Positions 13,558-31,224 of a DNA stretch of 32,000 bases are shown here, piece by piece. A program made the position numbers and the translations under genes. This stretch comes from Xanthomonas campestris pv. campestris str. ATCC 33913 (GTDB lineage: Bacteria; Pseudomonadota; Gammaproteobacteria; Xanthomonadales; Xanthomonadaceae), in contig NC_003902.1 in assembly GCF_000007145.1 (NCBI RefSeq), forward strand, positions 4,496,497 to 4,528,496. The letters run 5' to 3'. How positions within the stretch are numbered: position 1 is the first letter of the stretch; each line of letters starts with the position of its first letter. The notes beneath the pieces are model-generated. The model was given only the letters and a program-made list of their open reading frames with translations. It did not search any database and was not told the DNA's origin.

Positions 13558-13697
13558 GAGCGGCTAACAAAACGTAGCGAGCAGCCGTCAGGTGGGTGCG
13601 GACGGCGCGGAGGAACCGGAATGTACGTGGGTACATGAGGATTCCGAGCACCGGCCGCGCCCGCCCGGCGGCTGCGCAGTAGTTTTGATAGCTGCTC
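13558..13697. mobile_element. MITE-like 140-bp imperfect palindromic element flanked by TAA direct repeats
   Basis: Terminal inverted repeats are GAGCGGCTAACAAAAC (13558-13573) and GTTTTGATAGCTGCTC (13682-13697), matching 14/16. The interior pairs arm-to-arm over most of its length, with two 1-nt offsets and mostly transition mismatches. The apex is ATGTAC-GTGG-GTACAT (13621-13636). It is flanked by TAA at 13555-13557 (the mdtC stop codon) and TAA at 13698-13700. No ORF inside. Confidence 0.55.
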
Positions 13698-22560: not shown

Positions 22561-23265
22561 TCAGTTGACCGGCACGTCGTAGGCGGTGTCGGGCGTGGGT
22601 TCCGGACGAAAGGTGAAGTGCCACCATTCCATCGGGTAGTTGACGAAGCCCTGCGCCGCCATTGCGCGCAGCAGGCGCTGGCGGTGTGCGCGTTGGGTTG
22701 CGCTGATGTCCGGCGCGTCGGTATGTGCCCGGGCGTCGAAGAAATCGAACGGCGTGCCCATGTCCACCGGCGCGCAGGTTCCGCGCTTGCAGGTCAGTAA
22801 CCCCAGATCGAGCGTGGCCCCGCGGCTGTGCCCGGAGGTCTCGGCGATGTAATCGCCCAGCAACGCGCGCTTGTCCACGCGCGGGTAGTACTGCGCCTTG
22901 GTCGACTGCGCCTGCAGATCACGCGCCCATGCGACGAACGCCTGCACCGCACGCACCGGGCGATAGCAATCGAAGACCTGCAGGCGCTCGCCATCAGCCT
23001 CCACCGCCCGTGCCACCCTTGCCAACGCCTCGGCGGCCGGCCGCAGCAGGTAGCAGGTCGGTGCCGCATAGCCCGGCACCACGCGGCCAGTGAAGTTGTC
23101 GCGCCCGGCGTACCGCATGTCGACATCGATGTTGGGCGCAAGGGTGCGCACATCGATCAACCCCGCTTCTGCAGCCGTGGTGGCTGGCGAGATCGTGGGA
23201 GTGGCCGCTACATTGAATTCTGCGCATAGAACAGCTAGTGCGAGCGACCACCGCCAAACACGCAT
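22561..23265 (-). CDS. ddpX: Periplasmic D-alanyl-D-alanine dipeptidase (M15D, VanX/DdpX-like)
   Basis: Within ORF 22561..23337. The Met at 23265 gives the signal-like MRVWRWSLALAVLCAEFNVAA; the alternative start is 23337. Family motifs are D.RYAG.DNFTG, VFDCYRP, SGHSRGATLDL and EWWHF. Confidence 0.85.
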   Translation of the reverse strand: MRVWRWSLALAVLCAEFNVAATPTISPATTAAEAGLIDVRTLAPNIDVDMRYAGRDNFTGRVVPGYAAPTCYLLRPAAEALARVARAVEADGERLQVFDCYRPVRAVQAFVAWARDLQAQSTKAQYYPRVDKRALLGDYIAETSGHSRGATLDLGLLTCKRGTCAPVDMGTPFDFFDARAHTDAPDISATQRAHRQRLLRAMAAQGFVNYPMEWWHFTFRPEPTPDTAYDVPVN

Positions 23266-23580
23266 CGAGGTGCAGACGGTCTGCGAGGTGTTATCTGCGC
23301 TGAAGCATGGGTATGGCATGCGCCAAGCATAGGACATCGGCCCGTTGGGCGGGATACGCGGAGATGGTCAGAAAGACACGCTTGCCGGATCGCATGCTGC
23401 CATGCGGATCCGACCAAGTTGGATCAGTTGTTGCTGACTTTGGACTTACGAATCAGAAAACAGAGATCACGGAACGATACATATCCAAGCAACGCCGACA
23501 CTTGGGCAGCACCAGCCCGGTGGATCACCGGGTGGCGACTGCTGTCTCAACAGGTCACAACATCATCCGCATAAGCTTGC

Positions 23581-24942
23581 TCAGCGCGCCGGGCCCGTCT
23601 GTGTCTGCGCGGTCTGCGTGCGCTGCTGCGCGTCCTGACTTTGCCGCTGCGTCTCCGCTGTGAGCTGTTGCTGGCTCTGCTCCAGCGGCACCGCTGCGGC
23701 CTGTTGCTTGTCCACGTAGGCACGATTCACATCGAGCGAGTTATTGGGGTTTCGCTCCACTGCAATCAAGCCCTTGCCATTGGTACTCGGCACCAACTCA
23801 TCGATACGCGACATACCACTCACCTTGGCTTCAAATGCCACTTGGCCGGCGGCGCGTTGCATCTCATCGCGATTCTGGAAACCGCCGTTCGGCCCTTGTT
23901 TTTCCAGCTGCTTGACGGCCTGATCGAATAGCGGGTTATCGCGGCGCAGCTGCTCAACTCCCTCTTGCCGTTGCACATTCTTGTCGATAGATGCAAGTGT
24001 TTCCGGGCCAGCCTTGCCATCCACGCCTTTCAACCGATTTTCCTGCTGGAACTTCTCTACCGCAGCCTCGGTTTTGGGACCATATGTGCCGATGGCATCC
24101 TTCGCATCCAGATATCCCAGCTTGGAGAGCTTTTCCTGCAACTCCTTCACTGGAGCGCCCTGCTCATTGCGCTTCAGGACCCCATCGCCCTTATCTACAC
24201 TATGGGCGCCGTGCTTTTCCAGCTGAGAACGGTCATGTGCTGCAGGCTCTTGGCTCGCCTTGGCAACCGTCTTATCCGGGTCTGCCAGTTTGATCAGATC
24301 CGCTTTCTCGTTCTCAGCGCGATCCTTCAGGGAATCCAGCGTTTTTTGCTTCTCAACACGAGGAAAAAGCCCCTTGACGTGCTCGGCTTTGTAATCCTGC
24401 ACTGCACTAACGATGTCCTTGTCGGAAAGCTTGGAGAGCTCGTAATCTTTACCAAACTTCTCTTCCAGCCCCTTCAAAAAAACGCCAGATCCGCCGGGCT
24501 TTTTATCGCTTCCCGGACCGTACTGCACAGCAGTGCTCCACAGCGCATCCTGCACAGCCGGACCACGGTCGGACAGATCCACGCCTTTGTCGCTCAGTCG
24601 GTCCACCAGTTTGTCGTAATGCGTCCGCTTGATGTAGTCGTGCTGCTCCTGCGGAAAAGAAGCATCGGTCCTAGCCAACTCCTTCCACTTGGCACTGAAA
24701 TCGGCAGAGCCAGGCGTCAAACCCGCAAAATCGTCGGTGTATTTACTCTTCTTCACGAAGGCCGCAACGGTACCTCCAACGATGACATTGCCTTCCTTTG
24801 TCTTGACCTGGGACGTCATCTGATAAGAGCCGTAAGAAACACCGCCCGGATCATCGATACCGGACGACACTGTACTTGCGCCTCGCCCGCCGGTTTCGTA
24901 ATGCTTAGAGGTTTGACCCAACTCCCAGTCCTTGTTGCTCAT
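23581..24942 (-). CDS. Putative antibacterial T4SS effector (X-Tfe-like): lysozyme-like N-terminal domain + PG_binding_1 domain + C-terminal XVIPCD
   Basis: 453 aa, no signal peptide, RBS AAGGAGA. aa 1-215 carry HYETGGRG...DDPGGVSYGSYQ (muramidase-like signature). aa ~252-320 read VKELQEKLSKLGYLD...YGPKTEAAVEKFQ...GKAGPETL (peptidoglycan-binding domain 1). aa ~335-453 read NPLFDQAV..., GMSRIDELVPSTNGKGLIAV, RAYVDKQQAAAVPLEQSQQQL, then a Gln-rich tail. That matches my recollection of the Xanthomonas VirD4-interacting protein conserved domain. GC is clearly lower than the flanks. Confidence 0.8.
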   Translation of the reverse strand: MSNKDWELGQTSKHYETGGRGASTVSSGIDDPGGVSYGSYQMTSQVKTKEGNVIVGGTVAAFVKKSKYTDDFAGLTPGSADFSAKWKELARTDASFPQEQHDYIKRTHYDKLVDRLSDKGVDLSDRGPAVQDALWSTAVQYGPGSDKKPGGSGVFLKGLEEKFGKDYELSKLSDKDIVSAVQDYKAEHVKGLFPRVEKQKTLDSLKDRAENEKADLIKLADPDKTVAKASQEPAAHDRSQLEKHGAHSVDKGDGVLKRNEQGAPVKELQEKLSKLGYLDAKDAIGTYGPKTEAAVEKFQQENRLKGVDGKAGPETLASIDKNVQRQEGVEQLRRDNPLFDQAVKQLEKQGPNGGFQNRDEMQRAAGQVAFEAKVSGMSRIDELVPSTNGKGLIAVERNPNNSLDVNRAYVDKQQAAAVPLEQSQQQLTAETQRQSQDAQQRTQTAQTQTGPAR

Positions 24943-24996
24943 CGCACATCTCCTTATCTAAGAACCAAATTACAGTTGTCACGAGAAACGCGGAAT

Positions 24997-25548
24997 TCAA
25001 AGCGATTCAAGCTCGGCTGCTCGACTCGCCGTCATGTCGAGACGGCATTCGGCAGCATCTACGCGCCCCGCCTGCCCGCTATCGGGATCGTAGTAACACT
25101 TTTCATCGCGATCAGCGATCCATTGCCGCTGCTGATCGCGCAGCTTGCTCTGCTCTGTGCCATCCAGCTTCGCAATCAGCGCCTTGTAGACGTTATTCAG
25201 GCGGGAATCCTGGTACTCGTGCTCAGCAGAGATGCAATCCAGCATTGCCGGGGTTGCACCTGCGGCGTTAGTAATGCATTCGTCATAGGAAGGTCGCAGC
25301 AAGGGTGAATCTCCTTTTGGTTTTGATGACCCAGGCGCAGCCTGCGCCTGGGTAGCTTGCGGACTGGAAGGCTGTGCATCAGCGGCAAATGCCACATCGT
25401 CGGTAGGTGAGGCGGACGCTGGCGCACTGGATCCGTTCGGTGAAGCAGACGCGGTTGATTGAGCTGGCGTGGAAGATTCGCCACTACATGCAGCCAGCAC
25501 GCATAGCGCAAGCAGACATGAAAGACGAAGGACTTTGACGGTGACCAT
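24997..25548 (-). CDS. Lipoprotein with DUF1311 / LprI (lysozyme inhibitor) domain; putative cognate immunity protein (X-Tfi)
   Basis: 183 aa. Lipobox signal peptide MVTVKVLRLSCLLALCVLAAC, then a Ser/Ala/Pro-rich linker. The C-terminus is YDECI...MLDCISAEHEYQDSRLNNVYKALIAKL......LRDQQRQWIADRDEKC.........AECRLDMTASRAAEL, the DUF1311 Cys/helix pattern. It ends 54 nt upstream of the effector start on the same strand. Confidence 0.7.
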   Translation of the reverse strand: MVTVKVLRLSCLLALCVLAACSGESSTPAQSTASASPNGSSAPASASPTDDVAFAADAQPSSPQATQAQAAPGSSKPKGDSPLLRPSYDECITNAAGATPAMLDCISAEHEYQDSRLNNVYKALIAKLDGTEQSKLRDQQRQWIADRDEKCYYDPDSGQAGRVDAAECRLDMTASRAAELESL

Positions 25549-25618
25549 TGATGGAATTCATCCTTTTGGCTTGCACGGATCGGGGTGGGAGTTCTAGACG
25601 ATCAGTGAATCAGTGCCC

Positions 25619-25624
25619 ATTATA
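25619..25624 (-). promoter_or_regulatory. Perfect TATAAT -10-like hexamer upstream of the immunity-effector pair
   Basis: The complement of ATTATA at 25619-25624 is TATAAT. It lies about 70 nt upstream of the ATG at 25548, in an AT-rich 140-bp spacer. I found no convincing -35 at 17 bp. Confidence 0.25.
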
Positions 25625-25689
25625 TTTCCAGCTGCGGTGGTAGTCCTTCAAGGACACGTTCAATAAGAAGGAGACCTTAAACAACATTT

Positions 25690-26607
25690 TTAGCGATCCA
25701 GCAGCGGCGTATATGCCTGCTTCGCCGCGTCATAGGTGTAGGTGACCGCGTCATTTGCGCCGAGGGTGCGGATCTTGCCTGGGCCGGAAACGGTGGTGCC
25801 CTGCATGACCACCCGCAGCGACGGCATCCGGCCGGATTTGGCCGGCTCGAAGCTCAGCGTGCCGGTGCTGGTGACGCATTTCATCGTGCCTTCGTCGTCA
25901 CAGGCTGCGCTATTGTCGTCGCCGGTCACCACGGTGCCCAGATAGACCCAGCCCTTGTAATCGCCCAGGTCGTTTTTATTCGGGTCGAACGTAAAGATGG
26001 CAAAGCCTGAGAGGGTGACGCCGGTGGCGAACCGGGTGGTCGGCACTGCGAGCAGCAGATGGCCGTCCTTTGTCTGCGTGCTCTGGGGTTTGCGCTTCTC
26101 ATCGAGCGGGTCGGCTCTTTCGTTTGCGCCAAAATCGCCCGCCCATTGCTGCGCGTGGAAGAGCGTCCAGGTCGGCTTGCCGCCTGTCTCGTCCAGCACA
26201 TAAGTGGTCTGGCTGATACTCACCCCGACGTTGGGATCAGGGATGTCTTCCTCTTCGGATTTGCCGTATTTGCCCGGCCCTGCATTGGCAAACCCGGTGT
26301 AGTAGTGCTTGCCGCCGAGGTCGAAGCGGTAGCCGTACCAAAAGGTGGCGGTCGCGCCGTTATCGATGGTGTAGGACTCCGAGCCATCGCCCTTCATCCC
26401 GTAAACATCGTTCAGCACCTTGCCGGGCGTGGGCACCTCCACGGCAACGTGTTGCGGCTGCGCTGCGGGTGACATCGCCGGTGCGGCCTGCGCGGCGGTG
26501 GCTGTCGCTGCCGGCGTGCCCGCAGGCGCCGCGTCGCTGGCCTTCTCCGAGCAACCGCCCAGCATCAGCATGGCCGCCGCCCACAGCAGTGTCTTCCTGA
26601 GCCTCAT
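25690..26607 (-). CDS. Lipoprotein of unknown function (305 aa), possibly a second immunity-type protein
   Basis: Within ORF 25690..26649. The Met at 26607 gives MRLRKTLLWAAAMLMLGGC (lipobox), followed by an Ala/Pro linker and a beta-rich domain (FWYGYRFDLGGKHYYTGF..., GWVYLGTVVTGDDNSAACDDEG). I recognise no family. Confidence 0.6.
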   Translation of the reverse strand: MRLRKTLLWAAAMLMLGGCSEKASDAAPAGTPAATATAAQAAPAMSPAAQPQHVAVEVPTPGKVLNDVYGMKGDGSESYTIDNGATATFWYGYRFDLGGKHYYTGFANAGPGKYGKSEEEDIPDPNVGVSISQTTYVLDETGGKPTWTLFHAQQWAGDFGANERADPLDEKRKPQSTQTKDGHLLLAVPTTRFATGVTLSGFAIFTFDPNKNDLGDYKGWVYLGTVVTGDDNSAACDDEGTMKCVTSTGTLSFEPAKSGRMPSLRVVMQGTTVSGPGKIRTLGANDAVTYTYDAAKQAYTPLLDR

Positions 26608-26829
26608 CACGCGACATCCTTCCAGGTTTTGGCGGGCCGATCCTAGCAAGAATGCGCGGTAGACCCAGTAGATTTCGGAAGCCAGCCCACCGGATGTGGG
26701 CGGATTAAGTGCTTGGCTTCAACCCGGGCCTGCAGGAAGTCCGCGGGCCATCCTTTGCCATGTGGCCCGCGCGGGCATTCTGCCTTCGATCGCCGGCCGA
26801 TCCAGCGACTCGGAGCGAACCCGTGGGCG

Positions 26830-27630
26830 CTAGTTCGCCTCGGGCGCAGCTGCCGGAACGAGCGCCGTCGCCGGTACCGTCAACGGCCGCGTCAACGCAA
26901 ACAGGATGTGCAGATCTTCCGCATCCAGCACCTTGGCGTCATTGCCGCGGAAGTGGTGATGGAAGGCCTGCAGGGTAGCGGCGGGGTCGTCCAGGCTGTA
27001 GCCGAGCAGGGCCAGTGCCTGCCAGGGGTCGAAGCCGGCGGGCGCGGCGGGGCTGTCGGCGGCCGGCCAGCGGCCGAAGCCGGCATCGGCCAGGCGCTTC
27101 CACGGGAACAGGGGACCGGGGTCGTTCTTGCGTGTGGGCGCGACATCTTCATGCCCGACGATCTGGGTGCGCGGGATGCGCAGGCGCGTGCACAGGTCCT
27201 CCAGCAACACCAGCAGGCTGTCGATCTGCGCCGGGGCAAAGGACTCGTGGCCGTCATTGTCCAACTCGATGCCGATCGAGGCCGAGTTGATATCGGTAAT
27301 GGTGCCCCAGCGCCCGGCCCCGCCATGCCAGGCGCGTGCGCTGTCGGCGACCAGTTGATAGCGCCGGCCATCCTCGCCAATCAGGTAGTGCGCACTGACC
27401 CGGCCGCCGCTGTTGCGGCCGCGCAAGGTGGTCAGGCTCTGCTGCACGGAGTGCTGGTCGGTGAAATGCAGCACGATCAGGATCGGGCGCCGCGCATCCT
27501 GGTTTGGCGACGGCACCCACTGGGCCAGCGGGTTGCGCTGCGGCGCATGCGCGCACGCGCCCAGCAGCAGCACCGCCGCGCACAGCGCGGCACGTGACCA
27601 CAGGTGCAACGCACGAGGACGAGGGGGCAT
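26830..27630 (-). CDS. amiD: N-acetylmuramoyl-L-alanine amidase (amidase_2 family, AmiD/AmpD-like), exported, probable lipoprotein
   Basis: Within ORF 26830..28020. The ATG at 27630 is preceded by AAGGAGA. Signal MPPRPRALHLWSRAALCAAVLLLGAC. Amidase_2 motifs are IVLHFT, SAHYLIGEDG, RAWHGG, SIGIELDN and GHEDVAP.RK.DPGP.FPW. Confidence 0.85.
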   Translation of the reverse strand: MPPRPRALHLWSRAALCAAVLLLGACAHAPQRNPLAQWVPSPNQDARRPILIVLHFTDQHSVQQSLTTLRGRNSGGRVSAHYLIGEDGRRYQLVADSARAWHGGAGRWGTITDINSASIGIELDNDGHESFAPAQIDSLLVLLEDLCTRLRIPRTQIVGHEDVAPTRKNDPGPLFPWKRLADAGFGRWPAADSPAAPAGFDPWQALALLGYSLDDPAATLQAFHHHFRGNDAKVLDAEDLHILFALTRPLTVPATALVPAAAPEAN

Positions 27631-27783
27631 CCGGTTCTCCTTCAATGACAGCAAACGCAGGCAGGTGCGACGCGCGCCGGCCTGGGCACACGTGCGGGTG
27701 AGCGCCGCGCGGGCACAGCGCAACGCGACTAGACTAAACGCTTCGCAGCATGCCGGCCGCGGCCATCGTCGAGAACTCCTGCC

Positions 27784-29193
27784 ATGCCCGTGTCGCGCCC
27801 TCTGTGCTTGTGGTTGCTCTGTCTGGTCGTGATGCTCGCCAGCGGTGTGGCGTGCGCGGACAGCTCGCCTTCCCTGCAGGCACCGTTCGCCGTGGACGAC
27901 GCGCAGCTGCAGGCCGATTACTGGATCGCACGCAGCGACACGGCCAACGCGCCGCGCATGCCGGGCACGCAGATCGCCGCGTTCAATGCACGCCTGTTGC
28001 GTGACGATGCCTCCATGCACGGCCTGGCGCGCCTGCCCGCCACGCTGACGGCCGCGCAGGTGCGCGCATGGATCCAGACGCTGTCGTCAACGCCAAGGCG
28101 CACGCTCTACAGTACCGATGGCCAGACGCTGACTGCAGCGCAGCTGGATGCATTGCGGCAATCGCTGGCGCTGGGTGCGTTACCCGCACGAATCACGCCG
28201 GCCTATGCCCTGGTGGTGCAGCGCGCCGCCTTGCGCACCTTCCCGACCACGCAGCGGGTATTCACCACTCCAGACGACCGCGATATCGACCGGTTTCAGG
28301 AGTCGGCGCTCTACCCCGGCACGCCGGTCGCCGTGCTGCACACCAGTGCCGATGGTGTGTGGCGCTTTGTGCTGGCCGAAAACTACGCCGCCTGGGTCGC
28401 CAATGATCAGCTGGCGGTGGGCCCGCGCGCGCAGGTGCTCGACTACGCACAACGCGGCCCGCGCCTGGTGGTGACTGGCGCACGCGTGCAGAGCGCCTAC
28501 ACGCCGGAATTGCCGTCGGTCTCCGCACTGACCCTGGACATGGGCACCAACCTGCCGCTGCTGCCGCGCTGGCCGCCACAGACGCCGGTCAACGGGCAAT
28601 TGCCGCTCGCCGCGTACGTGGTGGAACTGCCACAGCGCGATGCGCGCGGTGCTCTGCAGCTGGTGCCGGCGCTGGTGCCGCGTGGTGCCGATGTGCACAT
28701 CGGTGCGTTGCCGCTCAGCGAGGCAGCACTGCTGCGCCAGGCGTTCAAGTTCCTGGGTGAGCGCTACGGCTGGGGCAACGATTATGCAGCACGCGATTGC
28801 AGCGGCTTCGTGCTGGATGTCTATCGCAGCCTCGGCATCGCGCTGCCACGCAATACCGGCGACCAGGCGCGCAGCCCGGTGCTGCACAGCGTGCCCTTCG
28901 ATCAACGCGCTCCCTTGCCACAACGGCAGCAACAGCTGGCGCGGCTACAGGTGGGCGACCTGATCTACATCCCCGGCCACGTAATGCTGGTGATCGGGCA
29001 TGTGCAGGGCGCGCCGTGGGTGATCCACGACGTGGCCGGTGCGGGCTACCGCGATGCCGCCGGCGCCCTGCAGCGCGCGCGCTTGAACGGTGTCTCGGTC
29101 ACGCCGCTGCTGCCGCTGCTCGCCGGCGACGGCACCCCCTTCATCGACCACATCACCCGCATCCAACGCGTCGCAGCCACGGCCTTGCCATGA
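27784..29193 (+). CDS. NlpC/P60 (C40) peptidase with N-terminal SH3b-like region; YkfC-like gamma-D-glutamyl-L-diamino acid endopeptidase
   Basis: 469 aa with a signal peptide. The catalytic region is FLGERYGWGNDYAARDCSGFVLDVYRSLGIALPRNTGDQ ... GDLIYIPGHVMLVIG. It is divergent from amiD, and its stop overlaps the epimerase start (ATGA at 29190-29193). Confidence 0.85.
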   Translation: MPVSRPLCLWLLCLVVMLASGVACADSSPSLQAPFAVDDAQLQADYWIARSDTANAPRMPGTQIAAFNARLLRDDASMHGLARLPATLTAAQVRAWIQTLSSTPRRTLYSTDGQTLTAAQLDALRQSLALGALPARITPAYALVVQRAALRTFPTTQRVFTTPDDRDIDRFQESALYPGTPVAVLHTSADGVWRFVLAENYAAWVANDQLAVGPRAQVLDYAQRGPRLVVTGARVQSAYTPELPSVSALTLDMGTNLPLLPRWPPQTPVNGQLPLAAYVVELPQRDARGALQLVPALVPRGADVHIGALPLSEAALLRQAFKFLGERYGWGNDYAARDCSGFVLDVYRSLGIALPRNTGDQARSPVLHSVPFDQRAPLPQRQQQLARLQVGDLIYIPGHVMLVIGHVQGAPWVIHDVAGAGYRDAAGALQRARLNGVSVTPLLPLLAGDGTPFIDHITRIQRVAATALP

Positions 29194-30284
29194 AAATCAC
29201 CGGTTTCCGCCTGGGCATGCTGCGCGTGCCGTTGAAAACCCCGTTCAAGACCGCGGTGCGCACGGTGCAGGCCATCGAGGACGTGGTGGTACTGCTCCAG
29301 ACCGACGGCGGCCACATCGGCTATGGCGCCGCGCCCGCCACCGCGCTGATCACCGGCGAGACGCATGCCAGCATCATCGCCGCCATCACGCACTGCATCG
29401 GCCCGCGCCTGGTCGGCCAGGACGTGGCCGATCTCAACCGCTTATGCGGGCTGGTGCAGCAGGCGCTGGAGCGCAACAGCAGTGCCAAGGCCGCGGTGGA
29501 AATCGCACTGTACGATCTGTGGGCGCAAGCGTTCGATGCGCCACTGTATCAGCTGCTGGGCGGCGGCACTCCGCGCATCACCACCGATATCACCATCAGC
29601 GCCAATCCCATCGAGGTGATGGTGGCCGATGTGCACGACGCGCTTGCGCGTGGCTACCGCGCGTTGAAGATCAAGGTCGGCAAGGACATCGACTCGGACC
29701 TGGCCCGCGTGCAGGCGATTCACGCTGCCGTGCAGGGCCGCGCGTCGCTGCGGCTGGATGCCAACCAGGGGTGGACGCCCAAACAGGCGGTGCGCACCAT
29801 GCGCACGCTGGAGCATGCAGGCATCGCTCCAGAGTTGCTGGAGCAGCCGGTCAAGGCTGCCGACCTCGATGGCCTGGCGTTCGTCACCGCCCATATCGAC
29901 ACCCCGGTAATGGCCGACGAAAGCGTGTTCGCGCCGGCGCAGGTGATCGACCTCATCCAGCACCGCGCAGCCGACATCGTCAACATCAAGTTGATGAAGA
30001 CCGGTGGGCTGTCGCAGGCCATCCGCATTGCCGATATCGCTGCGCTGTACGGCATGCCGTGCATGATCGGCTGCATGATCGAATCCAGCATCAGCGTGGC
30101 CGCCGCAGTGCATCTGGCGGTGGCCAAGGCCGACAGCATCACCCTGGCCGACCTGGACGCGCCGGCGCTGGGGCAGTTCGACCCCACCGAGGGCGGCGTG
30201 CATTTCAATGAGGCGCAGATTCATATCGACGACGCGCCCGGCCTGGGCATCCGGCGCATCCGCGGGCTGGAGCTGTTGCCCTGA
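29190..30284 (+). CDS. L-Ala-D/L-Glu (dipeptide) epimerase, enolase superfamily (YcjG/YkfB-like)
   Basis: Within ORF 28797..30284. The ATG at 29190 gives MKITGFRLGMLRVPLKTPFKTA. Motifs are AKAAVEIALYDL, ALKIKVG, LRLDANQGW, EQP, ADES and NIKLMK.GG. Confidence 0.88.
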   Translation: MKITGFRLGMLRVPLKTPFKTAVRTVQAIEDVVVLLQTDGGHIGYGAAPATALITGETHASIIAAITHCIGPRLVGQDVADLNRLCGLVQQALERNSSAKAAVEIALYDLWAQAFDAPLYQLLGGGTPRITTDITISANPIEVMVADVHDALARGYRALKIKVGKDIDSDLARVQAIHAAVQGRASLRLDANQGWTPKQAVRTMRTLEHAGIAPELLEQPVKAADLDGLAFVTAHIDTPVMADESVFAPAQVIDLIQHRAADIVNIKLMKTGGLSQAIRIADIAALYGMPCMIGCMIESSISVAAAVHLAVAKADSITLADLDAPALGQFDPTEGGVHFNEAQIHIDDAPGLGIRRIRGLELLP

Positions 30285-30447
30285 TCGGCGCACATGCCGT
30301 GCAGCGCTGCGTTGCATCCACCGATGCGCAGGCGCGCGCGTTGCTGGGTACAGTAGCGATCAGGCGTGCAGTGCCGAACGGCAATACGTTGCGCGCCGCC
30401 CCCTTTGCAGCGGTGTCTGCCGCTGGTCAGTGATCACTGGAGTCTGC

Positions 30448-31224
30448 ATGCGCATCGCTGTGTTGTTTCGATCCTTCGTGGTGCTGGCGGTCCTGCTGAG
30501 CAGCAGTTCGCCAAGCAGCGCCGCCCCGGTGCCGGCACTGGAGGCGGCACGCGCCCTGATCGTGGTGACCACTGCGGACTGGGACAGCACCCAGGCACGC
30601 CTGCAGGCCTTCCACCGCGTGGATGGCCACTGGCAACCGGCCGCACCGGCGTTTGCCGTTGCGCTGGGCCAGCATGGCAGCGCCTGGGGCGAGGGCCTGC
30701 ACCCGGCCCAGACCCAAGGCCCGCAAAAACGGGAAGGCGACGGCCGCAGCCCGGCCGGCATCTTCGCCATTGGCCCTGCGTTCGGCTATGCGCCGCAGAT
30801 CGACAGCGCCCTGCCGTACCAGCCGATGCAGGCCAGCCACTACTGCATGGATGTGCCCAGCTCGCCGCTGTACAACCGCATCGTCGATGCCGACCAGGTG
30901 GGCAAGGCCGCGGTGGCCGGCTCGACCGAACCGATGCGCCTGGATCTGCGCCACCCTGGTGATGCGCGCTACCAGGAAGGGTTTGTGATTGCGCACAACC
31001 CACAGGCGATTCCCGGCCGCGGCAGCTGCATCTTCGCGCATCTGTGGCGCAGCCCAGGCCATGCCACCGCCGGCTGCACCGCGATGGCCCCCGCCGACAT
31101 GCAACGCTTGCTCGCCTGGTTGAAGCCCGAGGACGCTCCGCTGTTCGTGCTATTGCCGCGTGCCGAGTACGCGCGCCTGCAACGCAGCTGGCAGTTGCCG
31201 GCACTGGCGCAGGCCACGCCATGA
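30448..31224 (+). CDS. Secreted L,D-transpeptidase-fold (YkuD-like) protein
   Basis: Within ORF 30208..31224. The ATG at 30448 gives the signal peptide MRIAVLFRSFVVLAVLLSSSSPSSAA. The catalytic-type motif GSCIFAHLW....ATAGCTAM has the His ... Gly-Cys of the YkuD fold. Its stop overlaps the next start (ATGA at 31221-31224). Confidence 0.75.
   Translation: MRIAVLFRSFVVLAVLLSSSSPSSAAPVPALEAARALIVVTTADWDSTQARLQAFHRVDGHWQPAAPAFAVALGQHGSAWGEGLHPAQTQGPQKREGDGRSPAGIFAIGPAFGYAPQIDSALPYQPMQASHYCMDVPSSPLYNRIVDADQVGKAAVAGSTEPMRLDLRHPGDARYQEGFVIAHNPQAIPGRGSCIFAHLWRSPGHATAGCTAMAPADMQRLLAWLKPEDAPLFVLLPRAEYARLQRSWQLPALAQATP

Follow-up and report, generated by a model that had tools for sequence, protein, structure and literature searches.

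Introduction

Bacteria-killing type IV secretion systems (T4SSs) of the Xanthomonadales (X-T4SSs), whose effectors (X-Tfes) and immunity proteins (X-Tfis) have been described since 2015, follow a recurrent genetic layout in which the X-Tfi gene lies upstream of that of its X-Tfe and often encodes a lipoprotein (PMC7777525). In the Xanthomonas citri prototype, XAC2609/XAC2610, the effector consists of a GH19 peptidoglycan hydrolase domain, a peptidoglycan-binding module (PG_binding_1) and a C-terminal Xanthomonas VirD4-interacting protein conserved domain (XVIPCD) with a glutamine-rich tail; it has no signal peptide, and the lipoprotein encoded just upstream has a reported PliI/Tsi1-like fold. 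Here we analyse two adjacent genes in a stretch of 32,000 nt from X. campestris pv. campestris ATCC 33913 (contig NC_003902.1, positions 4,496,497 to 4,528,496; 'the window', to whose numbering coordinates refer unless a locus is named), which share all of these features with XAC2609/XAC2610 except the two folds: the toxin domain is VgrG3-like (PF21277) rather than GH19, and the immunity protein is helical, of the LprI/DUF1311 family. Also unlike the prototype, the X. campestris pair lies away from a vir cluster.

The toxin domain is homologous to the C-terminal domain of Vibrio cholerae VgrG3 (VgrG3C; structures 4NOO and 4NSO), which belongs to a type VI secretion system (T6SS); the Glu/Asp pair of VgrG3C is kept, and a peptidoglycan-binding module is also present in VgrG3. 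The X. campestris immunity protein may be of the same small helical fold class as TsiV3. In V. cholerae the immunity gene lies downstream of that for VgrG3, whereas in X. campestris it lies upstream, and, judging from its domains, the X. campestris effector is tagged with an XVIPCD for T4SS delivery rather than forming an extension of a T6SS spike. The same three domains, again with an LprI gene upstream, are found in VgrG3C-type X-Tfes of Lysobacter capsici (P0027), Luteimonas aquatica (P0010), Rhodanobacter (P0040) and X. citri (P0036), which are 43–55% identical to the X. campestris protein; these lie next to virB4, virB6 or virD4, unlike the X. campestris copy, a satellite between an amidase gene and ddpX. 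That T4SSs and T6SSs share toxin modules was published in 2019, Smlt0332-type X-Tfes (including XCC3567/XC_3909) having a toxin domain in common with T6SS VgrG proteins (Sgro et al., 2019; PMC6536674).

We conclude, with a probability of about 0.9, that the region is a two-gene toxin–immunity module of the bacteria-killing X-T4SS. The pair is a typical representative of a known family and is already annotated so, with Pfam models available for all three effector domains, and its identity therefore adds little that is new. Modestly new points are a possible hot spot for cassette exchange, a probable orphan immunity gene and an apparently truncated annotation of the immunity gene. The pair also offers a clean natural example of what looks like a T6SS-type toxin–immunity pair (VgrG3C/TsiV3-like) re-tagged for T4SS delivery.

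Domain architecture of the effector

An exact-sequence look-up identified the effector as AAM43048.1 of ATCC 33913 and AAY50914.1 of strain 8004 (100% identity), and hundreds of X. campestris assemblies, among them the complete genomes CP062066.1, CP017308.1, AE008922 and CP000050, carry the exact protein at this chromosomal position. By accession order, AAM43050.1 being XCC3804, we take the effector and immunity genes to be XCC3802 and XCC3803 respectively. Public names for the effector are 'XVIPCD domain-containing protein' (NCBI cluster) and 'VgrG-related protein' (UniRef). The original prediction for this DNA had described a 453-aa open reading frame (ORF) encoding an enzyme-like N-terminal domain, a PG_binding_1-type module and an XVIPCD-like C-terminus with conserved sequence blocks and a glutamine-rich tail. 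The ORF, the blocks and the tail are all present in the translation, and Pfam recovered the three-part architecture (Table 1), each match lying far above its gathering score.

The 'enzyme-like' domain can be named more specifically: on profile and structure matches it is a predicted VgrG3-like C-terminal muramidase domain. It matches T6SS_VgrG3-like_C (PF21277) over profile positions 1–183 of 183 (E 2e-71, 240 bits versus a cutoff of 27), as well as the V. cholerae VgrG3 C-terminal domain structures 4NSO (E 2.5e-36) and 4NOO (chain 4NOO_A, E 2e-32). E16 and D31 do not vary in an alignment of 23 effector homologues that extends to 39% identity, and they align with positions 15 and 30 of chain 4NOO_A. 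We take these positions to be E827 and D842 of VgrG3, assuming from the known protein length that the chain covers residues 813–1017. D842A is a published inactivating mutation of VgrG3 (PMC11323562).

For the C-terminal domain, the profile search that had been set beforehand as a refutation test of the XVIPCD assignment gave a match to X-Tfes_XVIPCD (PF20410) at E 1.4e-20 (74.2 bits versus a cutoff of 24.9, profile positions 5–100 of 101), and residues 334–428 matched 7MU9, the NMR structure of the XAC2609 XVIPCD ('VirD4 interacting protein conserved domain'), at E 5.9e-20. A pattern necessary for translocation has been described in XVIPCD tails, with last ~6 residues that include Arg, lack acidic residues and are rich in small or hydrophobic ones (Oka et al.; PMC8740702). 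By inspection, the tail of the effector, QQQLTAETQRQSQDAQQRTQTAQTQTGPAR, fits this pattern for functional XVIPCDs, since its last six residues, QTGPAR, comprise Arg and Pro/Ala/Gly with no acidic residue. At the other end of the protein, the N-terminus (MSNKDWELGQTSKHYETGG) is on inspection hydrophilic, with no stretch resembling a signal peptide, and the toxin domain starts at residue 8, in agreement with the earlier claim that a Sec signal is absent. The gene is under purifying selection (dN/dS, the ratio of nonsynonymous to synonymous divergence, 0.08–0.16).

We propose that the effector would be a cytoplasmic product lacking a Sec signal and that the VirD4 coupling protein would recognise its XVIPCD and glutamine-rich tail, after which contact with a rival Gram-negative cell would lead to its injection by an X-T4SS encoded elsewhere in the genome. 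In the target cell, PG_binding_1 would fix the effector on the wall and the VgrG3-like domain, with E16 and D31 as putative catalytic residues, would cleave the glycan strands and cause lysis. The UniRef name suggests instead a T6SS effector, and the toxin family is indeed named after the T6SS spike VgrG3, while the model of the immunity protein has a TsiV3-like fold (see below). Nevertheless, Pfam identified no VgrG (gp27/gp5), PAAR, MIX or Rhs domain in the effector, which begins with the toxin domain and ends with the XVIPCD; its homologues are embedded in T4SS rather than T6SS clusters; and X. campestris pv. campestris is not known to have a T6SS. Delivery by a T6SS is thus barely credible, and we keep to the X-T4SS as the predicted route.

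Two previously known X-Tfes were considered as counterparts. Table 3 of Sgro et al. (2019) lists for X. campestris the Smlt0332-family entries XCC3567/XC_3909/xcc-b100_0624 and not XCC3802, which, on locus tags assigned by accession order, is a different gene from XCC3567 and probably represents a different toxin family. XAC0466, which the original prediction had listed for comparison, was rejected as a direct orthologue on length alone (584 aa with the XVIPCD at 488–584, versus 453 aa). We also noted, in 22 X. campestris contigs, a shortened effector variant of 288 aa, suggesting occasional inactivation in some strains.

The putative immunity gene upstream

The lipoprotein gene that had been placed 54 nt upstream of the effector gene, on the same strand, is indeed there, with a signal peptide and lipobox and a gap of exactly 54 nt. 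This spacer is likely a bicistronic junction and the two genes are probably co-transcribed: in a promoter and terminator scan of 23000–27000, no terminator-like site was found between the immunity and effector genes. The same scan yielded no terminator just after the genes and no promoter-like sites, counts being no higher than the shuffle expectation, and no consensus signal defines an operon.

The immunity protein matched LprI/DUF1311 (PF07007) at E 2e-21 (76.8 bits versus a cutoff of 22). Its AlphaFold2 (AF2) model has a four-helix domain at residues 83–183, with confidence (pLDDT) above 90, preceded by a disordered Ala/Ser/Pro tether at residues 17–78; four cysteines (C91, C105, C151 and C168) are invariant across 23 aligned sequences and the linker is variable and of low complexity. 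In a Foldseek search of the PDB with this model, DUF1311 structures came first (6AR7; 3GI7, with a target-normalised TM score of 0.72), followed by the TsiV3 chains 4NSR, 4NSO_B and 4NOO_B, whose alignments span nearly all of TsiV3 (target-normalised TM 0.59–0.67, 20–22% identity over 82–93 columns) at E values of 1.1–3.0. The tie to TsiV3 is weak, as these E values exceed 1, the TsiV3 Pfam family (PF20889) scored below its gathering score (17.9 versus 28.4 bits, E 0.003) and a PDB profile search with 23 immunity homologues reached only 6AR7 (DUF1311) and never TsiV3; we therefore file the protein under LprI/DUF1311, as TsiV3-like in its predicted fold only.

Original annotations give the product of this gene 183 aa, whereas current RefSeq/PGAP-style calls give 101 or 82, starting from an internal TTG (25300–25302) with AAGGAG 8 nt upstream. 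The N-terminus of the long form, MVTVKVLRLSCLLALCVLAAC-SG, is on inspection a signal peptide with the lipobox LCVLAAC, and the signal peptide, its hydrophobic core and the lipobox Cys (consensus ...LC..TAAC) are kept in 15 long-form homologues that are 56–68% identical to the immunity protein; the orthologous loci L023 and L033 encode this lipoprotein signal as well. Since this signal is conserved across the 15 homologues and the short calls drop both signal peptide and lipobox, the older 183-aa annotation appears to be correct and the short RefSeq start an annotation error, one that removes the very signal explaining where the protein acts. A cytoplasmic 101-aa isoform initiated at the internal TTG is unlikely, as the four invariant cysteines and the periplasmic target point to an exported form. 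As a periplasmic lipoprotein, the LprI/DUF1311 protein would bind and block the toxin domain, mainly guarding the producer against toxin that leaks into its own periplasm.

Conserved gene order and association with X-T4SS clusters

The immunity-then-effector order, which the original prediction had called the usual one, is kept in at least eight loci from six genera (L007, L023, L033, L087, L088, L089, L090 and L091), each with an LprI-family gene directly upstream of the effector gene on the same strand, and this was true of every homologous effector examined. These loci include those of five distant effector homologues, from Luteimonas aquatica (55% identity), Lysobacter capsici, an X. citri strain and Rhodanobacter sp. 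(43% each) and Solilutibacter silvestris (78% in the toxin domain): in 5/5, the LprI-family gene lies 45–73 nt upstream on the same strand. Moreover, the Luteimonas, Lysobacter, X. citri and Rhodanobacter pairs (L087–L090) lie among VirB4, VirB6/TrbL and DUF4189 genes, that of Rhodanobacter directly before VirD4. XAC2609/XAC2610 hold the same vir-cluster position in X. citri 306 (PMC6536674). The fifth homologue, P0012 of Solilutibacter (L091, 4001–5086; 361 aa), has neither PG_binding_1 nor a Pfam-detectable XVIPCD; its C-terminus nevertheless finishes with a very glutamine-rich tail, ..QQQQQNQAFQQQQQQSQTMSMGLG, and may include a divergent XVIPCD missed by the Pfam model.

No T4SS structural genes were found within the window, so that the description of the pair as a satellite locus holds for this stretch. 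An X-T4SS is defined as a chromosomal system of virB1-11 and virD4 in which VirB7 has an N0 domain. For its presence in the source genome we rely on the literature, in which X. campestris pv. campestris B100, 8004 and ATCC 33913 and pv. raphani 756C are listed with a complete X-T4SS (Sgro et al., 2019; PMC6536674). Several results weigh against our reading of the pair as an X-T4SS module. Besides the weak tie to TsiV3 and the lack of an operon-defining signal described above, in ATCC 33913 and 8004 the vir genes form a split locus, virB5/virB6 lying apart (PMC6536674); when a VirB4 fragment of X. citri served as query in a protein search, all matches were partial or metagenomic VirB4 entries, none of them a named X. 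campestris protein; and the literature that we consulted contains no report of killing activity by X. campestris pv. campestris, no mention of XCC3802–3804 and no experiment on the effector gene.

The split vir locus could mean that the pair is intact in a strain whose X-T4SS no longer fires, being kept as a selfish, addiction-like pair, in which the lipoprotein would be the antidote to toxin that leaks into the periplasm, or mainly for immunity against VgrG3-type toxins of other bacteria. This would fit with the action of X. citri X-Tfis against T4SS-independent cis-intoxication (PMC10933484), the proposal of Sgro et al. that immunity genes can be useful without the effector, the probable orphan immunity gene XCC3804 next door (see below) and the shortened effector variant. 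On the other hand, the listing by Sgro et al. demanded all twelve T4SS subunits and does include ATCC 33913 and 8004 (PMC6536674), and the effector, XVIPCD included, is under purifying selection and identical across hundreds of assemblies. We therefore consider a silent X-T4SS improbable, and a module that serves the X-T4SS remains our reading.

Composition, limits and history of the islet

The module stands out by composition, with 56.2% GC and a GC content at third codon positions (GC3) of 0.645 in the effector gene, 57.6% and 0.538 in the immunity gene and 43–56% GC in the spacers, compared to a window average of 65.5% and a GC3 of 0.79–0.82 in flanking genes. Effector GC lies 5.8 standard deviations below that of same-size windows elsewhere in the stretch (z = -5.8), and a 200-nt GC profile ranges from 0.47 to 0.59 across the module. 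The lower GC noted originally is thus real (56–58% versus 65.5%) but the contrast had been overstated, the 60-nt line of '80%' at 27001–27060 being a local peak within a segment of 74% (27001–27200). Low GC3 is not peculiar to the X. campestris effector copy: the X. citri vir-cluster and Solilutibacter homologues have values of 0.56 and 0.60, whereas the copies in Xanthomonas sp. NCPPB 1128 and a Lysobacteraceae bacterium have 0.91–0.94.

Synteny was examined in one genome per species, scanned with the flanking ddpX, and the resulting 80 loci were compared by tblastn/blastn. The site is empty, with the amidase gene adjoining ddpX, in about 11 Xanthomonas species, among them X. hortorum, X. codiaei, X. 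arboricola (several strains), X. bromi, X. euroxanthea, X. phaseoli, X. cissicola, X. cannabis and X. nasturtii; in Xanthomonas sp. Leaf148 it holds a homologue of XCC3804 alone. The pair is present at the site in X. hydrangeae (97% amino acid identity), Xanthomonas sp. NCPPB 1128 (77%) and a distant Lysobacteraceae bacterium, in which the effector is 77% identical compared to 62% for ddpX. Locus L011, with only an XCC3804-type 319-aa lipoprotein, aligns to window positions 26675..25695 and resumes at 23193, while homology to empty-site genomes is lost between about 23190 and about 26885. The resulting limits of the module (Table 1) agree with those proposed at first, 23338..25689.

Between X. 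campestris and X. hydrangeae, synonymous divergence (dS) is 0.07 for the effector gene and 0.10 for the immunity gene but 0.74 for the flanking ddpX, and this roughly tenfold difference points to recent transfer. Together with the GC and codon anomaly and the empty sites, it supports the horizontal acquisition that had been suggested from composition. Target-site duplications, the ends of an insertion sequence (IS) and att-like repeats were sought around the islet by a repeat search, which gave only short two-copy matches of chance quality, and the neighbourhood gene lists contain no tRNA, integrase or IS element; these missing traces favour homologous recombination over a mobile element, and recombination between related loci is the likeliest entry route. 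In our reading, horizontal transfer or recombination brought the pair to a variable amidase-ddpX site where X-Tfe/X-Tfi cassettes replace each other.

The islet sits in a murein-peptide turnover cluster (26830–31224 and 22561–23337) that encodes a YkuD-like L,D-transpeptidase, an MR_MLE protein resembling L-Ala-D/L-Glu epimerases, an NlpC/P60 protein with SH3b, an Amidase_2 protein and a VanX/DdpX-type D-Ala-D-Ala dipeptidase. As these neighbours are all murein-turnover enzymes and the effector is itself a predicted peptidoglycan hydrolase with a peptidoglycan-binding domain, it might be a housekeeping autolysin of this peptidoglycan-recycling cluster and not a weapon. Yet, lacking an export signal, it could not reach its own cell wall via Sec or Tat; it carries an XVIPCD and is accompanied by a dedicated putative inhibitor gene; and it is missing from the same cluster in the empty-site species, is of foreign composition and has homologues in vir clusters. 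An autolysin is therefore very unlikely, and the pair is better seen as an X-Tfe/X-Tfi module that entered the cluster.

Alignments to genomes with an empty site break off within both flanking genes, ~145 nt from the 5' end of the longest ddpX ORF and ~55 nt from the 3' end of the amidase ORF, and ddpX (22561–23337, minus strand) is called with 258 or 234 aa in different assemblies. The ends of ddpX and of the amidase ORF (26830–28020, minus strand) may therefore have been reshaped by cassette exchanges.

Alternative cassettes and a probable orphan immunity gene

A protein of 651–657 aa with PG_binding_1 and an XVIPCD but with an unrelated, SLT-like N-terminal region is encoded at the amidase-ddpX site in X. 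arboricola CFBP 7645, X. floridensis and X. campestris pv. asclepiadis, and its gene is preceded by a paralogue of XCC3804. Across L008, L009, L070 and L023, such paralogues lie directly upstream of effectors of 635–657 aa with PG_binding_1 and XVIPCD at the site; both effector–immunity pairs occur in tandem in Xanthomonas sp. NCPPB 1128; and in Luteimonas an XCC3804 homologue (42%) directly precedes the gene for a 597-aa X-Tfe with the same SLT-like N-domain (59%). XCC3804 itself matches no Pfam family, is absent from the empty-site genomes and belongs to the variable hot spot; its native GC3 and its presence without the pair in L011 rule out that it is part of the low-GC islet. Given the position of its family directly upstream of SLT-like X-Tfes at this site and in Luteimonas, XCC3804 probably encodes immunity to a different, SLT-like X-Tfe and is an orphan, with no partner effector in X. 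campestris.

Identities also differ by domain along the effector. The core and tail of its XVIPCD are 79% and 91% identical to those of the X. arboricola protein, compared to 77% and 61% for its own toxin-type orthologue in NCPPB 1128; relative to the Luteimonas effector, the XVIPCD core is 83% but the toxin domain only 50% identical; and the toxin domain is 78% identical to that of the Solilutibacter protein, which has a different C-terminus. At the DNA level, the X. arboricola gene matches only 23512–23922, the XVIPCD-coding end (82.6% identity). These divergent identities indicate that the effector is a mosaic protein. We tentatively suggest, at somewhat less than even odds, that the amidase-ddpX site is a dedicated exchange point at which toxin domains and immunity genes are swapped by homologous recombination, anchored by the XVIPCD-coding 3' end and the resident lipoprotein/immunity genes, with orphans such as XCC3804 left behind. 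If so, it would parallel, for T4SSs, the orphan-immunity arrays and C-terminal toxin swapping of T6SS, contact-dependent inhibition (CDI) and Rhs systems, with the difference that here an N-terminal toxin would be swapped against a constant C-terminal delivery tag. The evidence for alternative cassettes and an orphan immunity gene at one site is relevant to the diversification of effector repertoires among Xanthomonas species.

Table 1. Features of the effector–immunity module, its neighbours and related loci. Positions are those of the window unless a locus is named.
Feature	Position	Strand	Evidence
X-Tfe effector gene, 453 aa (XCC3802 by accession order)	23581..24942	minus	ORF, Pfam, PDB matches, exact-sequence look-up
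VgrG3-like C-terminal toxin domain (chitosanase-fold, lysozyme-like), aa 8-213, putative catalytic E16 and D31	24304..24921	minus	PF21277, 4NOO_A
PG_binding_1 peptidoglycan-binding module, aa 261-318	23989..24162	minus	PF01471, E 2.2e-18
XVIPCD, predicted secretion/VirD4-recognition domain (aa 333-428), and Gln-rich tail to aa 453	23584..23946	minus	PF20410, 7MU9
Effector–immunity spacer, 54 nt, with AAGGAG 7 nt upstream of the effector start codon ATG	24943..24996	minus	sequence
X-Tfi immunity lipoprotein gene, 183 aa, AAM43049.1 (XCC3803 by accession order)	24997..25548	minus	PF07007, lipobox, gene order
Immunity protein signal peptide and lipobox Cys22	25483-25548	minus	conservation in homologues
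Immunity protein LprI/DUF1311 four-helix domain, aa 83-183	25000-25302	minus	PF07007, AF2
Effector–immunity module by synteny, ~2.5 kb, lower GC	about 23194..25694		homology breakpoints
XCC3804 lipoprotein, 319 aa (305 aa in newer calls), AAM43050.1	25690..26649	minus	outside low-GC module, native GC3 0.79
XCC3804-family genes	L008 6886-7668, L009 6546-7394, L023 4420-5553, L087 6012-6935
Alternative X-Tfe cassettes, amidase-ddpX site (equivalent to window 23194-26885)	L008 7838-9793, L009 7547-9520, L070, L023 5710-7617
Xanthomonas small RNA sX9 (RF02228)	13562-13636	minus	Rfam, 95.3 bits versus gathering score 44, full length

Other features of the window

Outside the murein cluster and its islet, the window encodes QueF, an M20 peptidase, an efflux operon of the resistance-nodulation-division (RND) type and an extracytoplasmic function (ECF) sigma factor, and it includes a full-length match to a Xanthomonas small RNA (Table 1).

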